Of a stretch of 64,000 nt of DNA, positions 4,793-63,780 are shown in pieces. How positions within the stretch are numbered: the first letter of the stretch is position 1; each line of letters starts with the position of its first letter. The notes beneath the pieces were generated by a model, which was not told the origin of the DNA, did no database searches, and worked only from the letters and a program-made list of their open reading frames with translations. The position numbers and the translations under genes were made by a program. Source of the DNA: Fistulifera solaris (taxonomy: Eukaryota); assembly GCA_030295235.1 (NCBI GenBank), contig AP026127.1, forward strand, positions 434,001 to 498,000, in the 5' to 3' direction.

Positions 4793-6050
4793 ATGTTGCT
4801 GATGAAAAAATCGTCTCATTATTATTTGTTCTCCTCTAAAAGCTGCGCAGATCGTCTTGCTCTGATTTTACTATGGTACAATGTGTTGGTTTACGGCAAC
4901 CACGACTGCCTTAGAGTCACGAGTCAAATAATTTTTGACCCAGATTGCTACCGGGTACCTAATTGCCTTTCGTACTGCAAAGTTGTTAATCTGTTTGTGA
5001 CTTGTGCTCAACTTATCAATTCAATGTTGCAGCGTTCTTCTCATTTGTTGTTGTCTAAAAAGCTGTTCAGATCGTCTCGTTCAGATTTTACTATAGTACA
5101 AAGTGTTGGTTTACGGCGACCAAGACTGCCTTTCAGTAACGAGTCAAATTATTTTGACCAAGATTGCTACCGGGTACCATTAACTTTCGTACTGCAAAGT
5201 TGTTAATCTGCTTGTGACAACATATTTCTTTTTAAATTCGATGTTGCAGCGCTCTTCTCATTTGTTCTCGTCTAAAAAGATGCGCAGATCGTCTTGTTCA
5301 AATATTACTATGGTACAAAGTGTTGGTTTAGGGCAACCACGACTGCCTTTCATTAACGAGTCATATTATTTTAGACCAAATTGCTACCGGGTACCTATTT
5401 ACCTTTCGTACTTGTTTAAGTGACTTGAACACAATTTAGTTTTTTTTAAATTCAGTGTTGCAGCGCTCTTCTCATTTGTTGTCGTCTAAAAAGCTGCGCA
5501 GATCGTCTTGCTCTGATTTTACTATGGTACAATGTGTTGGTTTACGGCAACCACGACTGCCTTCCAGTCACGAGTCGAATCATTGTTGACCCAGATTGCT
5601 ACCGGGTACCTAATTGCCTTTCGTACTGCAAAGTTGTTAATCTGTTTGTGACTTGAAAATAACCTAATTTATAAAAATCCAATGTTGCAGCGCTCTTCTC
5701 ATTTGTTGTCGTCTAAAAAGCTGTGCAGATCGTCTAGCTCTGATTTTACTATAAAACAATGTGTTGGTTTACGGCGACCAAGACTGCCTTCCAGTCACTA
5801 GTCAAATTTTTATTGACCTAGATTGCTACCGGGTACCTATTTACCTTTCGTACTGCACAGTTGTTGATCTGTTTTGTGACTTGAACATAGCTTAATTTTC
5901 AATAAAAATTTAATGTTGCAGCGTTTTCTCATTTGTTGTCGTCTAAAAGCCGTGCAGATCGTGTTGCTCTGATTTTACTATAGTACAATGTGTTGGTTTA
6001 AGGTAACCACGACTGACTTTCGGACATGAGTCAAAACATTAACTTTCTCC
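4793..6050 (+). repeat. Tandem array 1: about 6 diverged units of 214-229 bp (dispersed ACTAT/GTGTTG/GACTG-CAGTC family)
   Basis: Core ATTTTACTAT recurs at about 4865, 5085, 5302, 5516, 5743 and 5972. Units also share ATGTTGCAGCG, CGTCTAAAAAGC and GCTACCGGGTACC. Confidence 0.95.
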
Positions 6051-6204
6051 GACGGTACCAACTCTCTTTCATCCCCGTAAAATGCCAATCATTTGAAAGC
6101 AGCAAAAGATCCAAAAGCAAGCATAAACTTATGCATAATAATGGCTATTTATGATAGCTTCTTGCTGAATGAGAATCTCCGTCCCATCTATAAAACCGAG
6201 TTCC

Positions 6205-6520
6205 ACACCGACTGAGTAGCACAGTTGGTTACTCTCCGGTTGACGAAACCGGAGGGGCGAGGTTCGATACGGTGGTTGGTCGATCTTGGCGCCAAGCGCC
6301 GTAGATGAGAGTCTTGAGACGATCGGTGGTCCCCGGTCGTGTCTGAATCAGATAGGAGCCCCTCTGTTCGCATGATTCCATGTTTGACCTGGCAGCGGTT
6401 CGGTGTTCGGTGGATTTCATCCATTGTCCATTGGGTCAGTTGTGTTTCTCTAACTTGTATTAGGGATTCGGTTCTCTTGTAGGGATAGGACGTAAGCATA
6501 GTAAATTCTAGCCGTTTTAT
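6205..6520 (+). mobile_element. tRNA-derived SINE-like insertion
   Basis: Flanking direct repeat AAACCGAGTTCC at 6193-6204 and 6521-6532. Pol III A-box TAGCACAGTTGG (6217-6228) and B-box GGTTCGATAC (6261-6270). Stem CTCCGGTT/AACCGGAG between them. TTTT at 6515-6518. Confidence 0.65.
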
Positions 6521-6679
6521 AAACCGAGTTCCCTGTACAGTATGTAGTATGTGTGATAAAGAGATTGTCGCAGAAGCACTCGAGAGTGACCAACAGATTT
6601 TTTCGAAACAAAAATTTTTCATTTCATTGCATCTCCTGCCATTCTCTCGAAAATAGAATCATAACCACTCTTTTATACA

Positions 6680-7685
6680 ATGAGCCGCCGCATTGGATGC
6701 ATTCAAATTGTGATGGGACCCGCCGGTTCCGGCAAAACAACGTACTGTCAAGCCATGCAACAACATATGCCTTCGGCCCGCATTGCCAATTTGGATCCGG
6801 CGGCCGAAGATGATTCGTTGCCGTACGAACCTTCCATGGATGTCCGCGAACTCATTTCCGTTCCGGAAGTCATGGAAGAATTACAATTAGGACCGAACGG
6901 GGCGTTGTTGTATTGTATGGAGTATTTGTTGGAGCATTTGGAAGATTGGTTTCGGGATGAATTGGATGCCTTGGAAGATGAAGAAGGTTACTTGATACTG
7001 GATTGTCCGGGACAAATTGAACTTTATACACATGTTCCGATTATGCGACAAATACTGGACAGGATGCAGCAATGGGGGTAAGTTATTTGTGTGTCGGTTA
7101 CAGTCGTGCGACTCGTTTCTCACACGTGTTGCTTCCAGTTACGGCCCCAGCATGGTGGCGGTCTTTTGTATCGACTCCGCGTTCTGTATTGATGCGAGTA
7201 AATTTCTGTCTGGTACCTTGTTGTCCTTGTCGGCCATGGTGGCGTTGGAATTGCCACACGTGACCATTTTAACGAAATGCGACCTCATGGACGAACGGGA
7301 AGTCGAACGCATCTTGGAATATGGCAGTGCTCAAGCCATTTGGGATCGGGAACAGGATCGACAAACCTTATTGCGGAGAACGAATTGGAATAATTATGAT
7401 TTAGATGTCGTCGAGCCGGAACCGAATCCAACGACCATCAGTCCGGAAGAGAAAGAACGTATACAATTGTTAGAAGACCGACGTTTGAGACGAGAACGTT
7501 TGACGCAATCCATTTCACAAGTACTGGATGATTGGCAAATGGTGAGTTTTGTTCCCCTCAATATCCGTGACGAGGAATCGTTGGATCATGTCTTTTCCTT
7601 GGTAAATCATGCGGTTCAATATGGTGAAGACTTGGAAGTCAAGGAACCGCCACATGATTTTGACGACGACGATGGTCCCATGTAG
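6680..7685 (+). CDS. GPN3: GPN-loop GTPase 3 (intron 7078-7138)
   Basis: GPAGSGKTTYC P-loop, NLDPAAE, LGPNGALLYCMEYL, DCPGQIELYTH, TKCDL and QYGEDLEVKEP. A GTAAGT...CAG intron joins the two ORFs in frame. Confidence 0.93.
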
Positions 7686-7903
7686 CATCACGGCATTGCA
7701 TTTCGCCGCTTTTCTGTGGTTCGTCGCGACGCAGCTTGAATTCGGTTTGACATTACGCACAGAGGTCTTTTCAAGAGCAAATAATACTTTCATTGGACGG
7801 TAGAGAGAGGTCTCCTTTCGTCATGACGAATTGCGTGAACATAGTATTTTTAATATTATCACAGAATCCTACAAAAATTTGATTTACCGCATGGCATTTT
7901 TAT

Positions 7904-9169
7904 TTAGCATTGAGCCGGGGCAATCCCTATAGTTCCTCGTTTCCAATCAAACAAGATATCATGTCCCATCATGGCATTGATGCCCAATACGGCACCTTCG
8001 GGTTCATCCACATAAATACGATTCGACCAAATATTGGTTCCTCCTGCTTTGCGTTCCATGTAATGTTCGGGTGGAATGGTAATATTGACATGTCCCGGTT
8101 CGAATACTAACGTCAGGACGGGCAATCGCTTCCATTCTCGTTCCGTATACGATCCGGTGCGTTCCGTAAACTGCCGTCCCGTTTGTTCTTCCCAAGCTTC
8201 TTGAAAGGCATCGGCCAACGCTTGTGGTAAAAAGGTATCGGTCGTTCCCGAATCCAAAATCGTCCCTCGTCCGGTCGCAAAGGCTTGAATAAATTCATCG
8301 GTCGTTTCGTCACATGTCAAACAAAGGGTGCCGACCCAAATGGCTTGGACTATGACACTGTACATGCCTTTGGTCGTTTGACGATTCAAGGTGGCGTGTA
8401 GCATCGGTGTTTGGTGTTTCTCCAATAAAGCACCACTCAAGGCCATCCATCCACCCGTTGGGGTCAAACAGAGCGAAAAGGCGTCGGGAGATGTTTCCGC
8501 TTCATTCAATGACAGTATCCCGTGATCACGCAAGGTAGACAAAAGGAAAATTCGGAATATTCCAGACCCAAAATCCCATCGGCGAGTTGTTTCGTAAACA
8601 ATCCGGTCAATTTGGTTTGACAGCCAAAGGTAAAGGCGACGGTCGAATACGGCAACGATGCTTCGTAATCGTCCTCGTCGTGTCCTACAGACAAGGTCAC
8701 CAGATCCGTGACTTCATACGCCGACCATCGGGATCCTTCCGTATAATGTTGTTGCAGAAGACATTGCGACTGTTCTCGAACACTGACGGGAAACTGACAC
8801 GTTGTTGTATTATTATCAGAAAATCCGTGCACCTTCAAGGTGACCGACGACGTTGAGGATTGCAAGGGATCGTAATACCGAGCACTTTGGTGTTGCCCAC
8901 AATGAGGACAGGGTTCACAGACCCACGCCGACAATCGCGATCCCGTATCGAGAATGAGCGTTTGTAAGACCGGTGGTTGTCCGACCCACAATTGAATGTG
9001 ATGCGTCCCCGTGTGCGCCGATAGTGGCCATCGCACGGTCGCGTTGCGGACGGCGTCGGCGACCCGAAAAAAGAAGCAGGAGACGGATCATAATATTGGT
9101 AGCATGCTTGTAAATCGTCGTACTTGGTAATTGTATGAGTCTCCTTTTATTCCTCAAAGTCATCAGCAT
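7904..9169 (-). CDS. Pepsin-like (A1) aspartic protease; 5' end uncertain
   Basis: Catalytic motifs ILDTGS and ILDSGTT, plus YTEGS, FGCQ...ADGILGL and VLGINAMMGHDILFD. Split over three ORFs by frameshifts. Confidence 0.85.
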
Positions 9170-9457
9170 CGAACGATATCGCGTCGCACTCTCTTTTCAC
9201 GCGTTCTTGACAAAAGGGGGAGTTTTGCAAGTAAGCAGAAAAGTACCGGTACGATGACGGAAACTATGTTTGCGGAACAATATTCGCCAGGAACCCGGAA
9301 AGCATTACTACGTACTGCGTTTTAGCGAATAATCACAATGCCGACATAGGGAACGATAGAGGTGTACAATAGCAAAGCATGACCAAAGTTTGAATGAACC
9401 GGTCTTCATTCTTCTTCATTCCATTCCGGGAAAATTTCGGCTGAAAAGTCATCTTTC

Positions 9458-9722
9458 TTCGTGACTGAATTGCAGTCGTGGAAAATCAGAGCAACACTTT
9501 GGGTCTATAGTGTATCCGAAGACAATGATTCACATAGACTCCAGACGTAGAAAAAGGTGGTTCGCGTTGCCAGCGCCATGGTAGGTAATGATATCGATGG
9601 AAAGACAAATGGAACCTCTAGAGAGCAAGCCGAACGAACGGAGAGTGCCGCTCCAAAATTGGATTCGTGACTGCAACCCACTCGTGGAAAAAGTAATCTA
9701 CAGTTTGGGATTATAGTGAAAT
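9458..9722 (-). repeat. Two tandem minus-strand copies (about 206 bp apart) of the dispersed repeat core
   Basis: Reverse complements read ACTATAGACCCAAAGTGTTGCTCTGATTTTCCACGACTGCAATTCAGTCACGAA (9458-9512) and ATTTCACTATAATCCCAAACTGTAG...CCACGAGTGGGTTGCAGTCACGAAT (9663-9722). Confidence 0.75.
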
Positions 9723-10015
9723 TGGACAAGGACGATTCCAAGGATTTTGACCTAAAGAATCGACGCTTGCATATATTATAACCAAGCTGCTAGGATAATT
9801 TTATCTTAATGAATGAGATATGAATAACTTATGAGTCGGTAAGTTGCGATTAGATGTAAGAACCCCATCGACCCGGGACAGAGGTCGACAACGTCTCATA
9901 CTTCTCCTTGTCATGACAAAACGGTACCTCCCTTTTTCGGATTTGTTGTTCGTCCTCAAGCATGAGCGACAAGCTCATCAATAGGAGGAAATAAATTGAA
10001 AGAAGCAGGATAAAA

Positions 10016-11176
10016 TCATGTCCAGTGGGCATTCTTCCGATGCACGGAAATGGGCATGCGTTCTCGCACCGATTGGATGTTTGAGAGGTCGATATCGCAT
10101 GTTACAATGCTCGGTGGTTCGACGACAGGTCGATCCACGCCTCCCGCGTCCACCACGACTTCTCCCCAGGGATTGACAACGAGAGAATGTCCATAACTAC
10201 ATCGTTTCGGATTGTGCTGTCCATATTGCGCCGCCGCAATAACATAGCATTGCTGTTCGATGGCGCGGGCTGTCAGAGACGAAAAGTGAGACTGCGTTTT
10301 GACAGAGTCGAAACTCGTTTCCGTTCGTACCTCGCAACAAGATATGCCAGTGCGCACTACCCGTGGGCACCGTAAAGGCCGAGGGCACCAACAACACTTC
10401 GGCACCACGTTCGACCAATTCTATATACAGTTCCGGAAATCGTACATCGTAACACGTGGACAGTCCCAAGCGGCCTGTATGTGAAAGGGAAGGATGATGA
10501 GATGGATCGATCGTATACTTGCTGTTGATTCTAAGACGCACGCACCAATGGGAGAATCGCACACGACGAGTTCGTGACCCGGAAGGGTCGTTTTGCTTTC
10601 GCGCAAATCGACTTTACCGGGTATGTGGACATCAAAGAGATGGATTTTGTTATAGTGACATCGTACTTCTCCTTGATGATTCAAAATGAGGTGCGTATTG
10701 TAGACTTTGGTTTCCGAGCGGACGTGCATGCCTCCGGCCGAAATCCACAATTGACTGTGACGAGCAATTAATTGAAGGCCATCGAGCAAAGAAATTGGGT
10801 GATTGTCGATAGTTTGGAGTGTATCACGGTTGATTTCTCTGCCCTCGACGACTGACACGAGTGCTTGCGACACGGCTGGGTCATTTGTCGCAATCTTTTC
10901 GTCGATCAGCGGCTCGGCATTCTTCAGCGTCTCTTCGGAAGATTCCCCCATGTATCCGAAACATTCGGGTAAAAACAGCATGACACAATTCTGTTGTCGC
11001 GCCTGATGAGCACATTGGGCAATCTTCAGCAAATTGTCGACTTTGGAAGATGTCGAACACAATTGGGCTACGGCAATGGTGTTCGACATGGTCGACAAGG
11101 ATCGTGCTCTGCCGAGGCCCGTCGAGACCGAAACAACAACTTGGAGAGTCGTCCTTAACTTGGAAAAGTTGTGCAT
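10016..11176 (-). CDS. NIT1: Nitrilase-family NIT1-like (deaminated glutathione amidase), multi-exon
   Basis: [14 protein letters not shown] (catalytic Glu), YNKIHLFDV (Lys), [12 protein letters not shown] (Cys), [13 protein letters not shown] and [36 protein letters not shown]. Two short introns inferred. Confidence 0.9.
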
Positions 11177-11370
11177 GAATAGTTAGAGAATGCGCTATTG
11201 TTCGTTTGTGATCATTCTTTTAGCTGGTTCTAATAAAAAGGCACGAGGTGCAGTTTTCGATGACAATGGGTTGATATTGCACTACCAACGGCTATTCAAC
11301 ACGATTTGTCGATAACAGCAGATAATCCGTTGACATTTCAAAGTAGTACAGAGAAACATAAATCAACACT

Positions 11371-13669
11371 TTGTGCGAGTGTCCATCACAGCGCCGGTAC
11401 GTCTTCAGCCTCGGTGTCATTTTTTCGCTCGCGATGAACAACGACACAAAAATTATCGAACAGAAACGATGCTTCTCTTGTGATTCTATCATGAGTTCTA
11501 TGCAGTTTCCCCCCGAAGACTTGACACAAGATCGCCTCGAGCAATGGTGGGCATTGCCGATGGACCGACAGCGGTTTGTGTGGGCCTTGCAAACCGAGAC
11601 GCGCGTGCGAGCCCACAAAGTGAAGCAACGTGACATTACGCACACCTTGCAATCCAATCTACTGTTCGACATTTATTTGCCGCCGGATGCACAGTTGAAG
11701 AATTCTGGATGCTCGAATTCCGAAACGTCACATTTCGTTATATTCTCAAAAAGTCAATGCGACGGTCTTTGGAAATCTACAACAAGCCAGAACACCCGAT
11801 GCTACCTTGGCGACGACCGTTGGTTCGCTCGATTTGACACCATCGTTCGAGCCAGAGGCTTCCGCGCCACTGGTCCCTCCGAACCTGTTGTTCTTTGAGC
11901 TGCTGTTAGAAGCGTACTGCGGATATTCTATGACCGGATTGTTTCATTCACTCGATCCGGATCGGCCCCGCGCTGCCATGATGGGAGGAGCTGTGGTGGC
12001 GGTGTTTCGATCGTGGAGCCACGTGCAAGACCTGCCGGAATGGGAACAGCTCGACTAGTTCTTCCAGGCATCGCACGATGGTTCCTACGAAACGATTCTG
12101 ACACAATTGAATAAACAATTGCAAAACTACTTTTACGACAAGAAGAAAGACAATTCACCGTTTCGAACGGGCGATGTGGATATCTTTTTACAACCCTTTC
12201 CGTTGACCCGATCCTTGGTGTCGCATTTGGTGCAACTGGGTTTCAAGGATTCAGTGCTGCAACATATTTCCGATTTCGCGGAGGCTTTGCGTTCGGTGAT
12301 CTCGAACGCATGGCGACGAAATTGTGTGCCGATCGAATTGTACCGGCCTTTGAGGACATTGGACCGCTCATTTATTCGGTGACCCAAAGAGGTTTGTCGT
12401 TTGCCTTGTCGTACGACTTCGAAAATTGCTCGCATTCGTATTCCTACCTAGAGCAAGCCAAATGGCCCCGCAATACGCAACTCATTATGCTTCACGAACG
12501 GGCAGATCTGCTCGGGGCGCTGTTGGATTTTGATATCAGTGTCGCGGCATTCGCGTACGATGGTGTGCAGGTGCGGGGTGCTCCGCGTGCGGTCTTGTCG
12601 CTTCTCACCCATGCGTTGGTCGTCACGCCCTTTGTCCTCGCCGAGAAACGCAACCGGCAGCGGATTGTTAAGGTACGGCTTTGTGGTGACAAGCTTGATT
12701 GTACGTTTTACTGCTTCTCACAATTTCCGCTGGTAGTACTGCAAAAGAGGATTTCGTTCTTATATGCTGGACCCCTACTGTAGCCATGACAAGCAATGTC
12801 CTCATGAAGCTATTCAAAGTGCGGTCAAAGAGGGAGCTCCGGTAAACCCCAGTGAAGAATATCCTGGGTTAGAGATGGAATGGAAAAGCCGGTATTTGGA
12901 TCGCGATAACACACGGGAAGATCCTGTCAATTACTACGATCGGAGAACCAGTGTTTGTGAATGCTTGTACAGCAAAGACACGAAAGACATTGAAACGGGC
13001 GAATACGAATGGGACAAAATGTTCAAGTACACCTTTGGAGTAGTGGCCAAAACGGAGGAACATTTGTTTGACTTTCTCACAAAGAAGAACCAGTGGACGC
13101 CGGAGCACCAAAGATTCGTCCGATCGATTCATCCAATGGCTCGCAAGATTTGTCGACATTGCCGAGAAGCCTATACGGATTATATTGTGCTCGGGCGTGG
13201 TCCCTCCGATTTCGCCGACTCGATCGATGAATTACTACACGGAGAAATGAGTTTTCGGCGCGCTGGCTTTTATTCAGGTGGTGCCTTTGATAGTACCCGA
13301 GTGCGGGATGATGCTCGCAGCACAAATGAGTACCTTTCGCTGTTAAGGGCTCAGGAAATTGCCGAAGAGACCAAGTATCTGATTCGTCACGGATCGAACG
13401 GAAATTATAAACCACGTTTTGCCTATGGGGACGATCTAGAGACTCTCCTGGAAAAAGCTGCTTCAATAAGTTTCGCGGAACCTAATCGACGGCCGCTGGG
13501 TTTGAACCCCGAACGTTTCATGGCGGATTGCGAAAAATGTCAAAAGGAAATGCCCGGACGAGAGTACGGAACCAAGCTCTGCGTAGACTGTGAAAGTCGA
13601 ATGCGATCGACCGAGGACCGTAAACCTTCGGGTCACAAGCGGCCCCGTACGGAGCAAGATGTTTCTTGA
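11371..13669 (+). CDS. Pol-beta-superfamily nucleotidyltransferase-like protein, possibly pseudogenised
   Basis: MMGGAVVA ... GDVDIFL ... LLDFDISVAAFAYDG ... RIVKYCKRGF (across intron 12673-12736). C-terminal CxxC pairs. In-frame TAG at 12056-12058 and frameshifts. Start uncertain. Confidence 0.6.
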
Positions 13670-13953
13670 GTTTTTTTAGAAACGATGAGAGATCTCTAGT
13701 CGACGTTAATATTGATCCTTTTAAAGTACATATGATTATATCCAATACTCTAGAAAATGCTTTCCTCGGCACGTGCTAAACCTTAAGTCGACGATCGGGG
13801 TTGTAGTGAACGGCGATAACCAAACAAGCGAACGAACGGATGTACGTATCGTCACTACTTAACCTCCCCGATTACGATTGTCGCTCGCTCCTCTCACGTA
13901 AGATCTGTATCTAATTGCACATTGTTTTCATTACGCGACCATAGATGCTCGAC

Positions 13954-14725
13954 TTACACTGCCACATCGTCGTCGTTCGATGAACTATTCCCATCATCGA
14001 CATTGTGTTGACTACCATTCCGTTCACTCTCAACATCGGACGCGTTAACACTCTCCCGTTCCTCCATCCTTCTTGTTTCCGACTGTTCCAATTCTGCCGC
14101 TGTCTTTACAAATTCCTCACAATCTCCTCTCATTTGTAAAATACGATGTTCTTTGTCTTGTAACTGCAACACGGTCCGTCTCATTCGTTCACAACTCGCG
14201 AGAATCACTTTGTGCGTTTCAATGATACTCGTTAGCGCGTCTTCATCCGCTTGCCATTTTTCCAGACGTCTTTGTAAAGCCGCCTCGGCTTGTTGGAATT
14301 CTGTTGCCGTCATTTGACTTTGTTGTTCTAGATCGTCGGACTTTTTCTTCGTCAATATTCGTAACCTTCGTAATCCGTGCAAGACGCTCTTCTTCGGCTC
14401 GCCAATGATCCCGCTGTTCGTCCAAGGCTTTCCGATATTGTTGAATTCGAATCCCCAAGAATTGTTCCCGTTCTTGTATCGTTTGTAACTGTTCGGTGGA
14501 CTGCCGCAATTTTTCTTGCACCTCGCGCAATTCCTCGTCGTCCTGCAATTCTTCCTGCACCGCATCCGACAAGGATTGCCGGATGTGGGGATCCAAATGT
14601 CGGGCTTGCGACGACGACGATTTTCCGGTAATGCGATTCCAAATGTTCATCATGGTATTGTGCATACGATTCGTTGTGCGGAATAATCGTTTTGGGTTTA
14701 CTTTTGTGTTCGCATCCATTATCAT
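13954..14725 (-). CDS. Coiled-coil hypothetical protein
   Basis: Two overlapping E/Q/L-rich heptad ORFs (14243-14725, 13954-14565) joined at an A-run near 14342-14346. Confidence 0.65.
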
Positions 14726-15100
14726 ATCACGCTCGCATCCTTCGTGACAAAAATGAAAGCCGCGTTAGTTATTGGGGAAGAGGGTAGCGGCTAAATACAA
14801 CACGTGATATAACCGTTGAAAGATATAATACGGTTTGTACCTGTTAAGAAATGTTTCCGTTGGCAAAGACACCAAAGAGGTGCAGCGTGCAGCCGCTTTT
14901 ATTCTTCGGATACTCGACGAATGTGAATAAAAGAAATGAAGAAATCATTATTTCCTATTCCTACGCTGGCGACCGATGCATTTTGAAGCGTAAATGCGCC
15001 ATCAACTTTCCTTTTCACACGACAAATTCAGCATTATTCGAGTACTCAACCGTGGTCCACCATCTGGGAGACACAGCCATTACAACCAACTAACTACACA

Positions 15101-15891
15101 ATGGGCGATTATCGAGCGACCGACGAGGACGGCCTCATGCACGTGCAATGCGACAGCTGGGCCTTGACGGATTTTGGACAGGTCGGAACTCGTTCTCGGG
15201 ATGGCAGTCTTCATGCGACGGATGAAGTCTTCAATGCGGCGTCGCATTTGGCCGCGACACTGTTTTCGATTTTGGGGACCGTCCTTTTAGTGGCGGAATC
15301 CTCGTCGACGCAATTGCTGGACGATGGCACGGAATTACCACCGAATGTGTGGAAAATTGTCAGTTTCTCCATCTACGGAGCCTCCCTCATCTTTTTGTTT
15401 GGCTGTAGTACGATTCATCACGCCGTCGTGGGACCGATGGAAGGGTTCTTTCGCAAAATGGATTATTTGGCCATTTATCCCCTCATTGGGGGTACCTTCA
15501 CGCCCCTCTGTTTGGTGTATTATCACGACAACGTCATTGGTTGGGCCTTCTGTGCGACGGTATGGGGGATTGCTGCCGCAGGAATGATCGCGACGGCGTG
15601 TTGGTTTGACAAAATACCCAAATGGTGGTCCATGACCATGTACATTACCTTGGGATGGTTGGGCGCCGGTATGACGCATTGGTTGATACCCAAACTGGGA
15701 TGGAGTGGTTTTGGTCTCTTTTTGTGGGGAGGTTGCCTTTATACGGCCGGGGGTACGTGTACACGATGGAAACGCCCAATCCGATGCCGGGACGCTTTGG
15801 GTTTCACGAAATCTGGCATTTGGCCGTCGTGTTGGCGGCTTTGACACACTGGATGCTCATGTACAATTATGTGCTAGTCGCGGAGGTATGA
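15101..15891 (+). CDS. Hemolysin III / PAQR family membrane protein
   Basis: DEVFNAASH, STIHH, RKMDYLAIYPLIGGTFTP, YITLGW and FGFHEIWHLAV. About 7 hydrophobic segments. Frameshift at a G-run near 15750. Confidence 0.9.
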
Positions 15892-16520
15892 AACACTCGT
15901 GTGTGCTGGCTGCATTCGGTGCAAGATGGGATTCCTAATACGTTGGGAATTGACCCAACGTTGCTGTATGACGAATGAACAATCGACGACGTTCCTTGAG
16001 AATTAGGTAGCAGCTTTTGCTATTGACTGTCAGAGAAACAACCGATTGAAGATTAGACTACACTAAGTCTAACGACGGAACATGTAATGGAAAGGATCTT
16101 CACAGACTTTTAAAATACGAACTCCGTATTTCGTTTCGAATCAGTTGTTGTAACAATAGAACGTGCAAGCTGAATAGTCCCCTTCCATCAAGTGGACCAA
16201 TTAGATTTAGATGACTTCTTCGCTATCATATGTTCCTCGATGATAAATGTGAAACAAGGTAATGTTTATTCAGGATCAGTACCAGTACAGCATAATATGG
16301 TAGACATCGTATTCCCCGGGACTGTATTTGATATTTAGTCGCGAACGAGACTACAGTATTCCTTATAGTAACCCTCCATGGACGAACGCGGCCATGCGAT
16401 GAATGAATATCGATGACAAAAATGCATCCATCCACAGCATAACATTGATCGGCTGCTGCTGCTGTTTAATCTATGAATTTATTTTACGCTTTTAAACACA
16501 TTCAACACTCGAAATACAGC

Positions 16521-17645: not shown

Positions 17646-17731
17646 CCATGTACTATAAAACAAATTACTAAAACCTAAAGTTAACAAATTGTGCCGTCAA
17701 TCAAGCGGCCTGCATGATAGATATTCGATTC

Positions 17732-23110: not shown

Positions 23111-23247
23111 GTCATTAATAAAAATGAATCAGAGAGAGCATTTAAAAAGAAAAGGTAAGCATGTTGTTGCAAAGAGAAAGGAATGCAAATAATAAACAGC
23201 AATGATTCAATGCAAAATAATAATGCAATGCGAAAAATCATTGCAGA

Positions 23248-23305
23248 TCATGACTGAATTCCAGTCATGGCAAACACGGACAACACTTTAGGGCTATAGT
23301 GAAAT
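23248..23305 (-). repeat. Solo copy of the dispersed repeat core upstream of the DENN gene
   Basis: Reverse complement ATTTCACTATAGCCCTAAAGTGTTGTCCGTGTTTGCCATGACTGGAATTCAGTCATGA. Perfect CATGACTG-N5-CAGTCATG inverted repeat. Confidence 0.8.
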
Positions 23306-23467
23306 CTGGGACCTATATGTTTCGGAGGTAATAAACGAGGAACGTTGGCTAGTCTAACGTCGAGCTCCAAAGCACGTTAATTGTCAGGCGTCCATCTGAA
23401 TGCAACGACCTCTCTTGAACTCCATTATCACATATAACAATACAAGACATTTGATATGAAGGAAAGG

Positions 23468-38274: not shown

Positions 38275-38275
<1 letters not shown>

Positions 38276-38309
<34 letters not shown>
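38276..38309. repeat. Poly(T)34 tract
   Basis: Uninterrupted T run about 45 bp upstream of the HAD start, in a divergent intergenic region. Confidence 0.9.
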
Positions 38310-38313
<4 letters not shown>

Positions 38314-51692: not shown

Positions 51693-52031
51693 TTGTGCAT
51701 TGGATTAATTCGTCAAGCACTGCAGCGCTTTTCACCACTAAAAGCATTCAAAACTAATGATATTTAAGTTGAAAATCCAGTATTTCCTTGATATCCTCGT
51801 ACCAGGCAGCGGACTAAGGACGATACGTGATACGTCATGCACTTTACTTATACAAGTATACACGAAGCAAAAAGCTAAGAGATGATAAGTCTACAGTCTC
51901 TAGACTAGCCTAGTCTAGAGTTTCCGCACAGTACAATTCCCGTCTTAGATACTCTGGGTCTTGGTTTCGCAGTGACAAGTAGCTACAGAAGCAGATCTAA
52001 AAACGTGAAACGATCAACGATGACCTGGGCT

Positions 52032-52489
52032 GAGGATATGTTGGTAACCAGCGAAAAACTTTTTTTTGGGTCTACAACCAGCGCTTTTTACTCCAAAATG
52101 GTGACCTTCGCACAAAATAAATTATAGATCAATAATTATAACAGCAATTGACGTCGTTCCTGATGAACTTTGTCAATCGACAGCTGATTAACATTTCTGA
52201 GCATTTGTAGAAAAGAATTCGAAGTATTCATTCAACTAGGAGCATTAGAACGTCAGAGGTAGCAAACTCGGAGCTGGCAGTTTAGATGCATGGATATCGT
52301 TGATGTGAGGCACTGTGCTGCTAAAAAATAAACATGCATCTTCTAATTAAACAATATTATGATGTTAAAGACGAACTAGGCATGTTATGTTTAATTTCGA
52401 TTTGTTATCTAGCCTAAGGTGCAAAGGTGTGAAAAAGTGCTGGTTATAGACCCATAAAAAAGTTTTTCGCTGGTTACCAACATATCCTC
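52032..52489. mobile_element. Non-autonomous Mutator-like MITE (458 bp)
   Basis: About 58-bp terminal inverted repeats (GAGGATATGTTGGTAACCAGCGAAAAAC...). 9-bp target-site duplication ACCTGGGCT (52023-52031) / ACCTGGGAT (52490-52498). AT-rich non-coding interior. Confidence 0.85.
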
Positions 52490-52650
52490 ACCTGGGATGC
52501 AAAAAAATCCTTCTTGCCCGAAAAGAAGAGGAGATTTCGACAACTAAAATATAATTTCGACGCTACAAAGAAATAAAAGTAGATCATGCTGTACGTCGAG
52601 AAACGGGATTTCTAAAGTTATCGCCTTACTTCTCTAGACATTCCTTCAAC

Positions 52651-55527: not shown

Positions 55528-55799
55528 ATTATTGATATTTTAAATAATGTTCAAAGAGGGACACCATCGTCCTCTTGATTGTGCGATCGAAGAAAACGTT
55601 CGTGGTGGCGGGAGTATTTTCGTGGTGATGACGGAACAAGAAACAAAATCATAATGTAGTATGCGTTAATTTGTGGGTAAAACCGGTACGAGCAACTATT
55701 TATTAGGGAGTAAAACAGAGTACGGAATGCTGTCTAACGTCTAAGCTAACAATAAATCACTTTCAGCAAAAGATCGTGAGCGCTCCATTTGCCATTGTT

Positions 55800-56560
55800 G
55801 CAATGAAGTATCGGCGCTTGTCTACACGCCTTGATGGTTCAAAGTCGAAAAGCCTGCGAAACGCTGTTTGCCGTTTTTACTCTCACCTTATCCATGACTG
55901 CACTTCAGTCACGCATAATTATTTTCTCGGGCGACAATGCTGCCAATTTAAGCTTTGTCTATCGTCGTTGCTATGAAGTACGGAGTAACCTTTAGAAGTG
56001 TTTCATTACAAGTAGTGATATTTGTACGTCAAAAAGCCTTGCGAAACGTTTACCTGCCGTATTTTACTATCGTTTAGAGTGTCGTCCGTTTTCGTCAGCG
56101 ACTGAACTTCAGTCATGAATCATTATTCTTTCGAGCGATAACGCTGCCTACATTCGCTCGTTCAGCAAACATATTAAGCTTTATCTATCGTCTTGGCTGT
56201 GAAATAACCTTTAGAAGTGTTTCATTACAAGTAGTGATATTTGTACGTCAAAAAGTCTTGCGAAACGTTTGCCTGCCGTGATTTTACTATCGTTTAGAGT
56301 GTTGTCCGTTTTCGTCGCGACTGAACTTCAGTCATGAATCAATATTCTTTCGAGCGATAACGCTGCCTACACTAGCTCGTTCAGCCAATATCTTAAGCTT
56401 TATCTATCGTCGTTGCTATGAAATAACCTTAGAAGTGTTTCATTACAAGTAGTGATTTTTGTACGTCAAAAGCCTTGCGAAACGCTTGCCTGCCGTATTT
56501 TACTATCGTTCAAAGTGTTGTCCGTTTTGGCCACGACTGCTTTTTTTTATAACTTTAGTC
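55800..56560 (+). repeat. Tandem array 3: about 3.5 units of about 219 bp (same family)
   Basis: AACCTT(T)AGAAGTGTTTCATTACAAGTAGTGA at 55987, 56206 and 56425. ATTTTACTAT at 56061, 56281 and 56497. GACTGAACTTCAGTCATGAATC hairpin. Confidence 0.92.
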
Positions 56561-56719
56561 ACACACGCGGTCCGTGCTACGTACGTCCATTTTTCGTGGC
56601 TCAAATTTTTGACAGCGACAGTTTGTTGCAACGCAATAAAAAACCGCCATCATTTACAACCTATCTTTTGTTATCGACAAAGGTTTGCAAACATTACTTT
56701 TTTCTTTTCTCCAACCAGG

Positions 56720-57647
56720 ATGCTATCGAATCACTTTCTACGCCACGCTTCGGCGTGCTGCCGTGTCACCACACAGCACATGCTTTATCATTCGCGCGCG
56801 CATCCCAAACCCATTCCGGAAATTGCCGTTACAGATGCCCTGTCTTCGTTATTAAAAGATGTGAACGGACGAAAACGTTTGCGTTCTCGACGATTCAAAC
56901 GTCGAGGAGTCGAAACTACTGTGGAACATCCCGATGAGACGATTGAATTGGCCGTCAATTTGAATTTAGATCCCCGCAAACCGGGTCAAGCGTTGCGTGG
57001 CAGCATTTCCCTGCCCAACGGCACGGGAAAGAAACAAATGGATTGTTTGGTATTTACGTCCGATCCGGCACTCCAAGAAGCGGCCCTACAGGCGGGTGCG
57101 AAATATGCCGGAGGAGAAGGTTTGGCCGACGAAGTTGTCGCGGGCCGCGTCGCGGTCGACACCATTCAACGTTCGTTGGCGACGGCCGAGATTTTGCCCA
57201 TCATTTCCAAAAAAAGTCGCACGATTGTTAGGTCCCCGGGGTCTGATGCCCAACGCGAAAGAAGGTACGCTGCTACAGGGCAGTGCCGAATTGTTGGAAG
57301 CCCTCGAAACGCAATTGGCGGGCAAACAAGTGCCGTACCGGACCGAGAAAGAAGGCATCGTGCATGTCCCCGTCGGTAAGGGTTCGTTTGGGAAAGCCAA
57401 ATTATTGGAGAATATCGGTCAAGTCATGAAGACCATCTTTGATGTGAAACCGGAAAATTACGGCAAGGGAAAGAAAAAGAAAACGACGGGCAAAGGAACC
57501 AAATATTTGTTGCGAGCTAGTGTCTCCAGTACACAAGGAAAAGGGGTTCGTCTCGATCTGCGTACCGTCGATCCCAATAGCACCTTCTTTCTCACTTCTC
57601 CGGAAGAAGTAGCAAAAGCAGCATTGGTGCCGGACGCGCAGGGATGA
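56720..57647 (+). CDS. rplA: Organellar (bacterial-type) ribosomal protein L1
   Basis: DETIELAVNLNLDPRK...LRGSISLPNGTGK, ARLLGPRGLMPNAKEGT, GIVHVPVGKGSF and VSSTQGKG. The A7 run at 57209 shifts the frame; it is A6 in the duplicates. Confidence 0.92.
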
Positions 57648-59272
57648 AGAAATAGATGCGCTTATCAAATTAATGATAGAAATTTCGTCTTAACTTGTAC
57701 GAAATAAATCATTTTATAATACAATTGTAGGGCGTTTATTGACGTAAGATGGATGCACTGTTATTCGGTTGGAGGTCTATCTACTACTTGATTGTCTCAT
57801 TCCACCGTAGCAGTGTTTTCCGCATTCATAAACTTTTGCACTAGACTCTCCGAGAAGTTCCAAAGATCCTCTTGCAGACGGCCGAGATTTTGCCCATCAT
57901 TTCCAAAAAAGTCGCACGATTGTTAGGTCCCCGGGGTCTGATGCCCAACGCGAAAGAAGGTACGCTGCTACAGGGCAGTGCCGAATTGTTGGAAGCCCTC
58001 GAAACGCAATTGGCGGGCAAACAAGTGCCGTACCGGACCGAGAAAGAAGGCATCGTGCATGTCCCCGTCGGTAAGGGTTCGTTTGGGAAAGCCAAATTAT
58101 TGGAGAATATCGGTCAAGTCATGAAGACCATCTTTGATGTGAAACCGGAAAATTACGGCAAGGGAAAGAAAAAAGAAAACGACGGGCAAAGGAACCAAAT
58201 ATTTGTTGCGAGCTAGTGTCTCCAGTACACAAGGAAAAGGGGTTCGTCTCGATCTGCGTACCGTCGATCCCAATAGCACCTTCTTTCTCACTTCTCCGGA
58301 AGAAGTAGCAAAAGCAGCATTGGTGCCGGACGCGCAGGGATGAAGAAATAGATGCGCTTATCAAATTAATGATAGAAATTTCGTCTTAACTTGTACGAAA
58401 TAAATCATTTTATAATACAATTGTAGGGCGTTTATTGACGTAAGATGGATGCACTGTTATTCGGTTGGAGGTCTATCTACTACTTGATTGTCTCATTCCA
58501 CCGTAGCAGTGTTTTCCGCATTCATAAACTTTTGCACTAGACTCTCCGAGAAGTTCCAAAGATCCTCTTGCAGACGGCCGAGATTTTGCCCATCATTTCC
58601 AAAAAAGTCGCACGATTGTTAGGTCCCCGGGGTCTGATGCCCAACGCGAAAGAAGGTACGCTGCTACAGGGCAGTGCCGAATTGTTGGAAGCCCTCGAAA
58701 CGCAATTGGCGGGCAAACAAGTGCCGTACCGGACCGAGAAAGAAGGCATCGTGCATGTCCCCGTCGGTAAGGGTTCGTTTGGGAAAGCCAAATTATTGGA
58801 GAATATCGGTCAAGTCATGAAGACCATCTTTGATGTGAAACCGGAAAATTACGGCAAGGGAAAGAAAAAAGAAAACGACGGGCAAAGGAACCAAATATTT
58901 GTTGCGAGCTAGTGTCTCCAGTACACAAGGAAAAGGGGTTCGTCTCGATCTGCGTACCGTCGATCCCAATAGCACCTTCTTTCTCACTTCTCCGGAAGAA
59001 GTAGCAAAAGCAGCATTGGTGCCGGACGCGCAGGGATGAAGAAATAGATGCGCTTATCAAATTAATGATAGAAATTTCGTCTTAACTTGTACGAAATAAA
59101 TCATTTTATAATACAATTGTAGGGCGTTTATTGACGTAAGATGGATGCACTGTTATTCGGTTGGAGGTCTATCTACTACTTGATTGTCTCATTCCACCGT
59201 AGCAGTGTTTTCCGCATTCATAAACTTTTGCACTAGACTCTCCGAGAAGTTCCAAAGATCCTCTTGCAGACG
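57181..59272. repeat. Three tandem 696-bp copies spanning the 3' ends of L1 and the convergent SDR gene
   Basis: Junction GACG at 57181, 57877, 58573 and 59269 (exact 696-bp period). In the regions compared, copies differ only in homopolymer lengths. Confidence 0.97.
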
Positions 59273-60341
59273 TTCATCTAAAGCCAATTCATTAATCACT
59301 TCTTTGGACTGAGGGTGAAAATATTTTCCGCGAATGTTTTCGGATGCCAGTCGATCTTTCGCTACACCCAAAAAGTGGCCCGTCAATGCACCTTCCTCGG
59401 TACTCCACAATACCGACTGCAGCTTGTCAAACACTTTCAACATAAAGGGTGCTTCCGAGAAAATCTTGTCGACCAAAGGTGTCCGGACGAGACCCGGGTG
59501 AAAGGCATTAACGTAGATGTTAGAATTGGGTCCTAGACGCTTCGTGAGGGCTTTTGACCAAACGATTTGTGCCAACTTGGACTGTCCGTAAGACAGATTT
59601 TCCATGCCTTTCATGAAAGGCTCTTTACAACCATTCAACGTCTCCAGATCGGTAGCAACGCGGTACGAATAGGTACTGAAGCTCGATCCGGAGGACGTCG
59701 AAACAACGCGCGCCATGTCGGATCGTTTCAGCATCGGTTCCAATAGTTTGTATAGAAAATGGTGCGAAAGATAGTTGACTTGAAACATTTCTTCCATACC
59801 ATCCGCAGTGATCGGAACACAGTCTTTCGGACCGTCTTTTTTGGGAACATAATTGTATCCGGCATTGAGAAATAGCATATCCAATGCTTTCCCACCATGG
59901 TGCAGCATGTATTCGTGGGCCGACTCTCGTACGGATGCCAACGAGGCCATGTCCATAAGGGTCGTCATAACGGGCCCTTTGGGATTTTCCTTTTGAATTG
60001 AAGCGGCGGCTTCGGCGCATTTCGTGACGGACCGACACGCCAGAGTCACTTCGGCTCCCAATTTCGCCAATTGACGAGCCACTTCGTAACCGATTCCGGA
60101 ATTCGCACCCGTCACCAAAGCCCTCTGGCCCGAAAGATTCTGTTTGTTGAGATCTTCAAACGAGAAACCCCACGGTTCATCCGCAAATGCCGGCGACAAC
60201 CCTTCCAGTGGGGGGAGCACATTGTTTGAGAAGTCGATATACTCCAATGTGACGAGGAATTTCCGTAAAGAGGAACACATGCACCAAAATGGCCACGAAC
60301 ACCGCCAGGTAGGCACCGGATTTCAACAGATGATTCAACAT
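59189..60341 (-). CDS. Short-chain dehydrogenase/reductase (retinol dehydrogenase-like) with N-terminal membrane anchor
   Basis: ALVTGANSGIGY, LFLNAG, VNYLSHH, catalytic YGQSK and FHPGLVRT. ATG at 60341 gives a hydrophobic N-terminus joined across a C-run near 60210. Confidence 0.9.
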
Positions 60342-60699
60342 GGTAGACAATGTATGATATGAGAATGATCGACGCGCTTTGTGAAGGTTCTTGTTGGTTC
60401 TAGAGTGATGGAATGAGCATAATGCGGTTGAAATTTATTATGCGAGCGTATCGACTTCCTTATTGTTCCAGTTTTTGAAGATCCGTTGCGGTCATTCTGA
60501 AATTCACTATGACGTCTAATGTATGTGACAATGTCTCCGACTCGAACTGTTTCAGTCCCGGAAATTCCTCGAATTTTTTAGACTAAAATTTTTTGTATTT
60601 TGATCAATAATTGATCATGACACACTAGCTAGCTAGATAAAACGTTCTACGAAATTTTTTAAAAAAAATGGCTTAACATATACTACGTACTCCGTAGTC

Positions 60700-62196
60700 T
60701 TTAGGCTTACGGCAGCCAAGCCTAGAGGTTGTACAGTAGGCTTGAACCAAAACACAAAGGATTCCGTTTTGCGTCCCTCGCATCCATCCATTGTCATTCA
60801 ACTGCGAATACAATCATAATTACGGGTAAAGAAAGTTCCAACAAAGATGATTCTAAAGTATTTCTGTTAAGAGTTTTTTTTTAATTTTCAGGTCGAAAAT
60901 CCGAGGATCGACACGTTGAATTTTCACTATGAACCGGAGTGTTGGTTTACACCAGCCAAGACTGGATTGTACAGTAGTCATGAACCGAAAACCGAACAAC
61001 AAAGGGTTCCGTTTTGCGTCTCTCGCATCCATCCATTGTCATTCAACTGCGAATACAATCATAATTACGGGTAAAGAAAGTTCCAACAAAGATGATTTTA
61101 AAGTATTTCTGTTAAGAGTTTTTTTTTTATTTTCACGTCGAAAATCCGAGGATCGACACGTTGAATTTTCACTATGAACCGGAGTGTTGGTTTACACCAG
61201 CCAAGACTGGATTGTACAGTAGTCATGAACCGAAAACCGAACAACAAAGGGTTCCGTTTTGCGTCTCTCGCATCCGTCCATTGTCATTCAACTGCGAATA
61301 CAATCATAATTACGGGTAAAGAAAGTTCCAACAAAGATGATTTTAAAGTATTTCTGTTAAGAGTTTTTTTATTTTCACGTCGAAAATCCGAGGACCGACA
61401 CATTGAATTTTCACTATGAACCGGAGTGTTGGTTTACACCAGCCAAGACTGGATTGTACAGTAGTCATGAACCGAAAACCGAACAACAAATGGTTCCGTT
61501 TTGCGTCTCTCGCATCCGTCCATTGTCATTCAACTGCGAATACAATCATAATTACGGGTAAAGAAAGTCGCAACAATGATAGTTCTGAATGACTTGTTAA
61601 GAGTCTCTTTTGTTTTCACGTCGAAAATCCGAGGATCGACACGTTGAATTTTCACTATGAACCGGAGTGTTGGTTTACACCAGCCAAGACTGGATTGTAC
61701 AGTAGTCATGAACCGAAAACCGAACAACAAAGGGTTCCGTTTTGCGTCTCTCGCATCCGTCCATTGTCATTCAACTGCGAATACAATCATAATTACGGGT
61801 AAAGAAAGTTCCAACAAAGATGATTTTAAAGTATTTCTGTTAAGAGTTTTTTTTATTTTCAGGTCGAAAATCCGAGGATCGACACATTGAATTTTCACTA
61901 TCAACCGGAGTGTTGGTTTACACCAGCCAAGACTGGATTGTACAGTAGTCATGAACCGAAAACCGAACAACAAAGGGTTCCGTTTTGCGTCTCTCGCATC
62001 CGTCCATTGTCATTCAACTGCGAATACAATCATAATTACGGGTAAAGAAAGTCCCAACAATGATAGTTCTGAATGACTTGTTAAGAGTTTTTTTATTTTC
62101 ACGTCGAAAATCCGAGGATCGACACGTTGAATTTTCACTATGAACCGGAGTGTTGGTTTACACCAGCCAAGACTGGATTGTACAGTAGTCATGAAT
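60700..62196 (+). repeat. Tandem array 2: six near-identical 240-245 bp units plus a degenerate lead unit (same family)
   Basis: TTTTCACTAT(G/C)AACCGGAGTGTTGGTTTACACCAGCCAAGACTGG, with the ATG/ATC at 60929, 61174, 61416, 61657, 61900 and 62140. Confidence 0.97.
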
Positions 62197-62508
62197 CGCA
62201 CTTGCTTCATTTCCAAAACGTCGCCTTTGACATCACAACAAAGCAATGTCGACTTCATTGCCATCCATTGTTCGTCCTAATATATTAAATGAAATAAATA
62301 AACAGGTGTTTCTGCTTCGTTTTCTCTTTCACAGCGGCCAAAGCAACAATCCACCGTCAAGCTTTTTCTTGAAGGTCCCAAAAGGACCCCAATTTTGCCG
62401 GACGGGGTCTTAAAAAATAACTGCAACGCTTATTGGCATTACTAGCTTGGTATCCCACGTGTTGCTGTTAAATTATTATTTCCTCTTCTATTTACTTAAC
62501 TATTGATG

Positions 62509-63360
62509 CTATAAATCTACATATGAACTCGTTTCCTCCACAGGACGACACGTTTTCATGTTACGCCACCAGCTTTGTTGAAAGCAAGCATGCGGTCCAT
62601 TGCCATGCAAACACCGAGATACCGTGCGTACATCATGCGTTTGCTCCAATTGTAGAATCAATTCTGGTAAGCGTTCAAAAATGGCCGTCGTTTCGCTATC
62701 AGCATTCCCTTCGTACGAGGGTACATAGACAGCATTTCCGTAATTCCGCACACATTGCTGCGGAGTGTTTTCAATAATGATGGTTCGTTCTCGTGTAAAT
62801 ACACTGGATGACTGCTTCTTGTGTTTCTTCCATACCTTAGCCAAGTCTTTGGTCTCACGGCACGGGCAAGTAAAAATGGCGCCATTCTGACACGTGCATC
62901 GCTCGCACGCGTGACGATAGGACTCACACCAGCAACACAACGACACTTCCCCGTGCACATGCCTGGGAATTCGTGCCCGTGTCACCATATGATCGGCGGT
63001 CCACACGAATGCAAAGAGATTCCGACAATCGAGTCCTTGACAGTCGTGTTGCGGATCGAGGGCGGAACAGATTTTCCAAGTCACATAATGAGCCCAACTG
63101 GCGTGTGCGGCGGTCCAAACGGCGACAACATGGTTCCGTGCTTGACACCAGCGTAAAAAGTCCAAGACCGCCGGTCGTAAGAAGGTTTCCGATGCAGATG
63201 GATGTTCACTGCTGCTGCTTTCCGCCACGAGGGTTCCGTCGAGGTCAAGAATAATGCCCAGTCGTCGATCGGATGATAAACTTTCCTCTGGCATATATTC
63301 CTCCGAGGATGAGTCTAACGAAGCTCTCACCGAAGAAGGACTGAGGGCACGCGGGGGCAT
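62509..63360 (-). CDS. FCP1/NIF-like HAD phosphatase with a Cys-rich insertion
   Basis: IILDLDGTLV, FLRPAVLDFL, VAVWTAA, KDLAKVW and TIIIENTP...NYGNAVYVPSY. Confidence 0.85.
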   Translation of the reverse strand: MPPRALSPSSVRASLDSSSEEYMPEESLSSDRRLGIILDLDGTLVAESSSSEHPSASETFLRPAVLDFLRWCQARNHVVAVWTAAHASWAHYVTWKICSALDPQHDCQGLDCRNLFAFVWTADHMVTRARIPRHVHGEVSLCCWCESYRHACERCTCQNGAIFTCPCRETKDLAKVWKKHKKQSSSVFTRERTIIIENTPQQCVRNYGNAVYVPSYEGNADSETTAIFERLPELILQLEQTHDVRTVSRCLHGNGPHACFQQSWWRNMKTCRPVEETSSYVDL

Positions 63361-63726
63361 ACTGAAGGACTGTTGTTGTGACGTTGAATAATGCGAAAGA
63401 ATCGAATGCCTTGGTGGCTGTCGTGCATTATGAGCGAAAGGATGCTAGATGAATGATTCGTGAAGCTAAGAGTTGAAAACTGGTCTCGAAAGCGGGTCAA
63501 TGATAACTTTTTTATTCATGATTCATGACGAAAACGGATCGATCGATCGTTTTCGAGTGTGTGTCTGCGATGCGGACGATTGGCTTTTGTTCGCAAACGT
63601 GGTCTTTTTTTCGCGCATGTGTGCAAGAAATGCGATCTGCGCACGTGCGCGTGCGGAGCATTTGCTTGAAGCTTGAAGCAATCCGAACACTTCTGAATGT
63701 CCCATAAAGTGTACAGTAGTAAAAAG

Positions 63727-63780
63727 TTACTATGGTACCAACTGTTGTCAGTTTTCACCACGACTGGTTTTAGTCACGAG
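63727..63780 (+). repeat. Solo copy of the dispersed repeat core
   Basis: TTACTATGGTACCAACTGTTGTCAGTTTTCACCACGACTGGTTTTAGTCACGAG closely parallels array 1 (TTACTATGGTACAATGTGTTGG...CCACGACTGCCTTCCAGTCACGAG). Confidence 0.7.

Follow-up and report, generated by a model that had tools for sequence, protein, structure and literature searches.

What are the tandem arrays that punctuate the stretch of contig AP026127.1 analysed here (64,000 nucleotides, positions 434,001 to 498,000, referred to below as the window), and are they related to each other? The window is gene-dense eukaryotic DNA with 42-51% G+C, and the organism is a probable diatom. A language-model look-up of one lineage-restricted ORF, which led to a cluster with Bacillariophyta as its most frequent phylum (score 0.95), is a lead in this direction and no proof. 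An initial annotation had proposed that three arrays which look unrelated, together with several solo sites, stem from a single dispersed element. The arrays and solo sites do form one dispersed repeat family, which is real and internally structured. It comprises nine intergenic loci with 24 units, covering ~4.3 kb or 6.7% of the 64 kb: three young tandem arrays (units of 217, 219 and 245 bp), two that are old and decayed, and four solo cores. The monomer is ~215-245 bp long, about 220 bp, and is found head to tail in arrays and also singly. The family is apparently undescribed, as the initial annotation had suspected: no published description was found in papers or in Rfam (Repbase and Dfam lay outside the search). 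This raises more questions. What holds the units together? How did they come to lie at nine loci? Is a protein reading them and, if so, for the benefit of the repeat or of the host?

The relationship between the loci is apparent already from short words kept in order. The two-box pattern TTTACTAT-N5-10-GTGTTG occurs seven times in the window against 0.01 expected, a count reached by none of 100 shuffles, and GACTG-N3-12-CAGT occurs 24 times against 3.3 expected (shuffle maximum 9). A core profile built from 12 seeds with nhmmer returned 22 matches in the window with E <= 1e-10: six in array 1, four in array 2 (including an old unit at 55836-55922), six in array 3, five on the minus strand (9451-9554, 9657-9758, 23242-23342, 34202-34312 and 34603-34718) and one on the plus strand (63689-63785). 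Two weaker members, at 27040-27126 (E 1.5e-5) and 38327-38411 (E 0.009), are new. The arrays and sites named by the initial annotation were thus recovered, and its count of at least seven loci becomes nine. A weak partial copy that it placed near 49808 drops out, as it consists only of ACTAT-N8-AGTGTTG and was missed by both profiles. The second of these, built from all 24 units, added no more copies; its three matches at E 3-4.4 compare with four at E <= 5 in 20 shuffles. Profiles made from a single array recover the other arrays and several solo sites with E values of 1e-18 to 7e-3, while the best values in 20 dinucleotide-shuffled windows were 0.07 to 4, so the similarity between loci is better than that of shuffled DNA, the comparison on which the initial annotation had staked its claim. 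It had also described the rest of each unit as diverged between loci and homogenised within them. The homogenisation stands, but the divergence is less complete than claimed: units of array 1, array 2 and the array at 34 kb can be aligned over ~125-205 bp, beyond the core. The family has the features of dispersed satellite-like repeats, that is, monomers of 100-500 bp found in arrays and singly and homogenised within arrays: its monomers of 217, 219 and 245 bp lie head to tail, units are 76-99% alike within arrays, and solo copies exist.

What exactly is conserved? The core contains, in this order and with fixed spacing, the blocks CGTC.AAAA, GCGAAACG, TTTYACTAT, AARGTGTTG (7-8 nt after the preceding box) and CCAYGACTG-N5-CAGTCAYGA. 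Across 12 locus representatives the 106-column core has a mean identity of only 54%, and 35 of its columns are conserved at 75% or more. These columns are clustered, with 21 adjacent pairs against 11.2 on permutation and no permutation among 10000 reaching 21. The block columns are invariant or nearly so, whereas the other core columns show 20-63% identity, which bears out the earlier description of motif blocks at fixed spacing among diverged linkers. The last block is a palindrome whose 5-nt spacer nearly always has T as its fourth base; where Y is T in both arms, as in the core at 23.3 kb, it becomes a perfect 8-5-8 palindrome. A longer spacer had been attributed to array 2, but it belongs to array 3 (7 nt), and array 2 has the 5-nt AACTT, save in its truncated final unit. 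A run of at least four T within 40 nt after the palindrome is present in 7 of 11 representatives compared with 24% of background windows. Could the palindrome be the stem of an RNA hairpin, kept by pairing? In the 8-bp stem 80% of the cells pair, and none of the eight pairs has changed on both sides, where shuffles average 1.1 such pairs. The departures are either breaks or C/T changes that arose independently in each arm. The palindrome is therefore conserved as sequence and not as pairs, and the covariation that the initial annotation had suggested looking for is absent from this stem. Conservation of this kind fits recognition of double-stranded DNA by a dimer.

How did the units spread? 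Their non-block columns offer a clue. In these columns the old unit of array 2 matches the 34.2-kb unit at 63% and its own neighbours at only 44%, and the 9.7-kb unit is nearest to the copy at 38 kb (59%), against 45% to the adjacent 9.4-kb unit. Distant loci thus share subfamilies in columns that are not conserved, and therefore units have been copied between loci and not only duplicated in place. All three young arrays end at the palindrome or within ~13 bp after it, and their 5' starts differ (linker, linker and ACTAT box); by a rough estimate, three ends would fall in such a window of a 220-bp unit with a chance of ~1e-3. Local reshaping is visible as well, in the alternating two-unit pattern of array 3 and in the older units at the 5' end of arrays 2 and 3. 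Blocks that are kept across subfamilies whose other columns are near saturation are the pattern that a cis site needed for propagation would leave.

The explanation that we favour, tentatively and with somewhat less than even confidence, is that the family is a non-autonomous mobile or satellite-like element and that the conserved module is a putative double-stranded-DNA protein-recognition site serving its own copying. The mechanism itself, the binding of a protein to the module, mobility in the present or the past and the class of enzyme are all things that we infer. A lineage-specific repeat would have spread through gene-proximal intergenic DNA and multiplied locally head to tail. A sequence-specific protein would read the ~100-bp module as double-stranded DNA, meeting one-sided accessory boxes (CGTC.AAAA, GCGAAACG, TTTYACTAT, AARGTGTTG), then the two inverted arms, CAYGACTG and CAGTCAYG, which flank a short asymmetric spacer. 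The module may be the cis recognition region of a copying or moving enzyme that works at the palindrome, for instance a nickase of the Rep/HUH type or a site-specific recombinase. It is at the palindrome that arrays would begin or stop, to be reshaped afterwards by unequal exchange, and most copies in the window would be old and decaying. A rolling-circle or other palindrome-dependent mechanism is a possible way of working. Tandem multimers are a natural product of both site-specific recombination and rolling-circle replication. Inverted arms, a short asymmetric spacer and one-sided accessory boxes are likewise shared with recombinase core sites and rolling-circle origins; the differences are that no enzyme gene was found among the ORFs scanned in the window (see below), that the spacer is not conserved except for the T at its fourth position, and that there is no recognisable nick-site motif. 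Hairpins and direct repeats of HUH systems are treated in general statements in the available part of one source (PMC10288648). The functional module of the initial annotation is plausible, then, as a protein-binding site or as the cis part of a non-autonomous element that amplifies in tandem; its alternative of a structured module fails, with 0 predicted pairs and 0 of 8 compensatory changes.

Several observations weigh against this reading. If the family were mobile, one would look for common flanks, yet among seven loci none of the 21 pairs of left flanks and none of the 21 pairs of right flanks exceeds z 4. Neither element ends nor target-site duplications can be defined. No Rep, helicase, transposase or recombinase domain was found in the 48 scanned of the 54 open reading frames (ORFs) of at least 120 aa in the window, 14 of them unannotated and searched down to E <= 1. 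The argument from array ends rests on three arrays only. The 9.5-kb pair and the 23.3-kb core are each spanned by single contigs of a DNA-like run (8961-10649 and 22532-23497) that show 0 differences, which weakly suggests that neither has a near-identical twin elsewhere; no near-identical copies were seen, and these contigs give no sign of recent movement. In the three young arrays pooled, block columns vary less than others (8/71 against 54/242 variable columns, p 0.043; 9/346 against 77/1192 changed cells, p 0.005), which hints at constraint in place. In the gene map of this analysis, eight of the nine loci are oriented toward a gene start 9 to ~670 bp downstream, and the loci fill about half of the larger promoter-bearing intergenic spaces. 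Orientation and occupancy also fit a role in host promoters.

Are the cores then promoter elements of the host? We regard this as rather unlikely, though it deserves to be set out in full. In this view the repeat would be a cassette near promoters, perhaps of mobile-element origin. A dimeric transcription factor would sit on the palindrome and other factors on the upstream boxes, transcription would begin in or close to the words CCAYGA / TCAYGA, and array formation would be neutral expansion of the cassette. Besides the intergenic position of all loci and their orientation (132 bp from the start of a DENN gene, 157 bp from that of an L1-family gene and ~9 bp from a candidate protease ATG), five loci are located between divergent genes, with the ATG of the other gene 95-400 bp away; in tandem-type intergenic spaces the sense orientation is found in 4 of 5 cases, which is not significant. 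The lower variation of blocks within arrays is slight, and in array 1, the oldest of the young arrays, blocks decay like the remainder (7/23 variable block columns against 33/82 in the other core, p 0.47) and the right arm is damaged in four of the six units. Together with the degenerate copies at 27.0 and 38.3 kb, this looks like decay after copying. The young arrays are the cleaner test, as their units are certainly local copies, and constraint in place is at most weak. Adjacent old units hold their blocks far better than their other core columns (32/39 identical against 28/63, 29/43 against 12/56 and 27/32 against 25/55; binomial 1.6e-6 to 1.2e-10). Taken by itself this contrast would speak for selection in place, but it does not prove it: adjacent old units are not nearest relatives, so the contrast may reflect units that arrived separately. 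The six near-identical units of array 3 point to the 3' end of a gene; past it there is just a 55-aa ORF. The flanking genes have no common functional theme, and we know of no precedent for a 100-bp alignable cassette common to unrelated promoters. At its beginning, TCAY, the right arm resembles the stramenopile initiator YCAYTYY, often with a T run downstream (7 of 11); the full initiator consensus is not reached (GAR instead of TYY), and the available text of the source says that the combination of initiator (INR) and FPR was not found in a diatom (PMC3599244). A related proposal, which we consider unlikely, is that the module is a working site which selection maintains where it stands. It would act as a common promoter, insulator or recombination cassette able to expand into arrays, a dimeric factor (conceivably a recombinase or Rep-type protein that has been domesticated) would bind its 8-5-8 palindrome, and it would mark about half of the larger promoter-bearing spaces.

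Does the family need a function at all? Plain satellite-like DNA, its arrays scattered by ectopic recombination or by reinsertion of circular DNA and its blocks an effect of ascertainment, would account for the signs of unequal exchange in the head-to-tail arrays, such as the alternating pattern of array 3, and dispersed satellites of beetles, flies, oysters and humans do occur as monomers and short arrays near genes in the literature available to us in part. What makes it improbable is the blocks, nearly invariant over 12 representatives among intervening columns that are 20-63% alike and clustered beyond all 10000 permutations; ascertainment cannot yield 32/39 identical block columns at a background of 44%. 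More improbable still is a family of small-RNA genes organised like 5S rDNA or spliced-leader arrays, with the core as the gene or as its external promoter. A conserved core with array-homogenised, locus-specific spacers is the classical organisation of tandem small-RNA genes, and this is the arrangement found here, T runs past the palindrome in 7 of 11 representatives included. Against it stand a mean identity between loci of only 54%, with short blocks and no continuous gene conserved, and every RNA search made. Nothing in Rfam matched the window at gathering scores, or 4700-9900 and 55700-64000 at E <= 1; against shuffles, the folds of eight cores and four antisense strands are ordinary (z -1.5 to +1.2); RNAalifold predicts no pair on the 12-locus alignment; and the stem lacks compensatory changes. 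On these grounds a structured RNA was rejected. Of four sequencing runs aligned over 5900-25899, the RNA-like ones have contigs that reach neither the 9.5-kb nor the 23.3-kb cores, which does not bear on transcription one way or the other. A tRNA-derived short interspersed nuclear element (SINE) finds no support either, with no gene called by ARAGORN in the window and no A-box or B-box words in the core.

Could the family belong to a known class of transposon? The initial annotation had leaned towards a Helitron or Helentron-like element. The architecture does not agree: Helentron/HINE, canonical Helitron and miniature inverted-repeat transposable element (MITE) membership were all rejected on this basis. 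Canonical Helitrons begin with 5' TC, end with 3' CTRR, insert between A and T and have a Rep/helicase partner; the units read AYGAR after the palindrome, often followed by TC, and the partner is missing from the scanned ORFs. A self-BLAST of the window did not find a shared flank, and the left flank compared with the reverse-complemented right flank of the same locus gave no value above z 4 at any of seven loci (best z 0.8). For a MITE, terminal inverted repeats are missing at the locus level, the sole inverted repeat being the internal palindrome of 5-8 bp. The available part of PMC10288648 reports that Replitrons were not detected in diatoms, and this identity was set aside for that reason.

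The closest likenesses include Cg_HINE of the Pacific oyster and the DINE-1 type, Helentron-associated interspersed elements with satellite-like arrays, as far as the available text describes them (PMC7492417). There, too, the arrays are short (mostly 2-6 monomers, each of 140-250 bp) and dispersed through gene-rich DNA on either strand, a palindrome that could fold into a stem-loop goes with them, and the monomer subfamilies have a few conserved motifs in common. According to the same text, the array of a HINE is framed by left and right segments that the whole family shares: a 5' subterminal inverted repeat (taken here as 11-12 bp) and its complement, a microsatellite, and a right flank of 60 bp with a subterminal repeat and a 3' palindrome (PMC7492417). 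Here flanks are common to 0 of 42 pairs and a left-right inverted repeat to 0 of 7 loci. All three young arrays end at or shortly after a palindrome, and the palindrome is also a part of every monomer. Tribolium TCAST1, Drosophila 1.688 and human alpha-satellite singles resemble the family in occurring as singles and short arrays near genes and in their homogenisation within loci; in the partly available accounts of these satellites the differences are a long heterochromatic parent array, of which none is known here, and a shallower divergence, the core divergence here being far deeper (mean identity 54%) and accompanied by blocks at fixed spacing. The oomycete supramotif, in the available part of its source, is made of INR (YCAYTYY) and FPR (MWTTTNC) with a 2-nt gap, 16-19 nt in all (PMC3599244). 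Its likeness to the right arm extends to the T-rich stretch a few bases on, the stramenopile setting and the proximity to start codons; the module here is 100 bp long, however, positions 5-7 of its initiator-like word are GAR and not TYY, FPR matches are partial and at variable distance, and only YCAY matches.

Searches in other collections found no relative. The three-block pattern has no locus in metagenome contigs, none in viral contigs and one in prokaryotic genomes, in a cysteine-rich coding stretch of an archaeal contig that lacks the other blocks. The palindrome-only pattern has 50 metagenome loci, and in none of them does the profile match reach the ACTAT box (furthest, model position 54); the two examined in full (L007 and L020) are unrelated.

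Why would this matter? Should the whole genome be as dense in the repeat as the window (nine loci, 6.7% of 64 kb), the family would account for a major and so far unclassified share of the intergenic DNA in a compact algal genome, at promoter positions. The boxes at fixed spacing are a concrete DNA site with which to seek a binding protein. A binder that is a transposition or replication enzyme would point to a palindrome-dependent route to dispersed short arrays in stramenopiles; a host factor would point to a repeat that wires many promoters. Under either reading, repeat masking and the annotation of promoters in this organism would gain from the core profile.

All nine loci are intergenic, and small insertions of other kinds occupy some of the same spaces (SINE-like by array 1, MITE-like in the 34-kb array). 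Array 1 (4824-6041, plus strand) was recognised by Tandem Repeats Finder (TRF; 217 bp x5.5, 82% matches), by nhmmer and by unit alignment. It has six units of ~217 bp, with cores at 4827-4929, 5047-5150, 5264-5367, 5478-5580, 5705-5808 and 5939-6036; units 1-5 are 76-88% alike pairwise, and the array ends ~13 bp past the last palindrome. Extensions to the left of ~4793 (z 0.25) and to the right of ~6041 (z 0.14) are not significant. A coding reading of the array was set aside: a 137-aa ORF (4793-5206) spans its units, and 217 bp is not a multiple of three. Beside array 1 is an insertion of ~310 bp (6206-6515) bounded by direct repeats of 15-16 bp, TATAAA(A)CCGAGTTCC (6190-6205 and 6516-6533). 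The tRNA-like A-box and B-box words in its head suggest that it is probably a tRNA-derived SINE; neither ARAGORN nor Rfam made a call. In the DNA-like run its contig depth is ~10x that of neighbouring bins, with several variant joints, and one RNA-like contig ends in poly-A at 6523.

Array 2 (55727-56563, plus strand) was called by TRF at 55986-56539 (219 bp x2.5, 92% matches). Local alignment extends it leftwards to 55727 (z 14.5) through older, more diverged units (55727-55985, core 55836-55922), which precede the 219-bp units with cores at 56021-56126, 56240-56345 and 56460-56563. The array stops inside its last palindrome, 157 bp ahead of the ATG (56720) of a ribosomal-L1-family gene. Overlapping the 3' part of this gene there are three tandem copies of a 696-bp unit (57181-59272), 99.7-99.9% identical, which TRF missed because their period is greater than 500 bp; they are either genuine, from a recent triplication, or an artefact of the assembly. 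Array 3 (60682-62199, plus strand; TRF 60754-62195, 245 bp x5.9, 94% matches) likewise reaches left to 60682 (z 5.6) by local alignment, through an older, more diverged partial unit (60682-60760). Then come six 245-bp units, 92-99% alike and alternating in a two-unit pattern (483 bp), with cores at 60885-60990, 61127-61235, 61369-61477, 61610-61718, 61854-61961 and 62094-62199. In its palindrome the spacer is 7 nt long, and 3 nt are inserted into the right arm. The array ends no more than ~10 bp past the last palindrome and is oriented toward the 3' end of a NIF-phosphatase gene.

Both old arrays are on the minus strand. In the two-unit array at 9451-9758 (cores 9657-9758 and 9451-9554) the anchors are 205 bp apart. 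At 9447, ~9 nt past the right arm, a candidate ATG opens the probable first exon of an aspartyl-protease gene. The decayed array at 34056-34718 (cores 34603-34718 and 34202-34312, partial unit 34056-34092) is upstream of a minus-strand sodium:solute symporter gene. It is divided by a MITE-like insertion of ~170 bp (34355-34521) with an internal 80-bp palindrome (34415-34495), and the 400-bp spacing of its two units is explained by the presence of this element between them. A partial copy of the element, 97-100% identical, is found at 44485-44571.

Among the four solo cores, the one at 23242-23342 (minus strand, found by nhmmer) has the perfect 8-5-8 palindrome CATGACTG GAATT CAGTCATG and is 132 bp upstream of the ATG (23110) of the DENN-domain gene. 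At 24470-24600 on the minus strand a stretch without palindrome resembles the array-1 unit (AAAAGCTG..CAGATCG.., TACCAGGGTACCTGG), but the resemblance (z 2.9, best shuffle higher) is not significant; were this relic genuine, it would make the 23.3-kb core the final unit of an old array that a symporter fragment has interrupted. That fragment, 122 bp from the core, is one copy of a 791-bp inverted duplicate (23464-24254 and 31979-32769, 99.5% identical) holding the 5' part of the sodium:solute symporter gene. In RNA-like contigs a GT..AG intron (23632-23725) is spliced out, and both ends run into unlike sequence, so these contigs derive from a full copy of the symporter gene. The plus-strand core at 27040-27126 is degenerate, its left arm decayed to GAATG. 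The one at 38327-38411, also degenerate and on the plus strand, is beside a run of 34 T (38276-38309), which is directly upstream of the core and 44 bp from the start of a HAD-hydrolase gene. The plus-strand core at 63689-63785, found by nhmmer, has a 4-nt spacer and T in place of C in its right arm, and is oriented away from the start (63360) of the NIF-phosphatase gene. CACGTG-type boxes are known regulatory words in diatoms, and a GC-rich word containing CACGTG, GCGCACGTGCGCGTGCG, is present at 63640-63656, ~50 bp upstream of this core.

The genes of the window are ordinary nuclear ones and include those for DENN, Dcp2, SRP68, an organellar-type PheRS, a GPN-loop GTPase, Rab and a chlorophyll a/b-binding-family (light-harvesting) protein. 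The ORFs at 134-826 and 2306-3427, neighbours that match nothing in Pfam, are paralogous to each other, with 65% DNA identity (91-761 against 2765-3432). In the space between the convergent SRP68 and chlorophyll a/b-binding-family genes, a 59-bp inverted repeat (95% identical, 52031-52089 and 52432-52490) encloses ~460 bp, and this feature may be another MITE.

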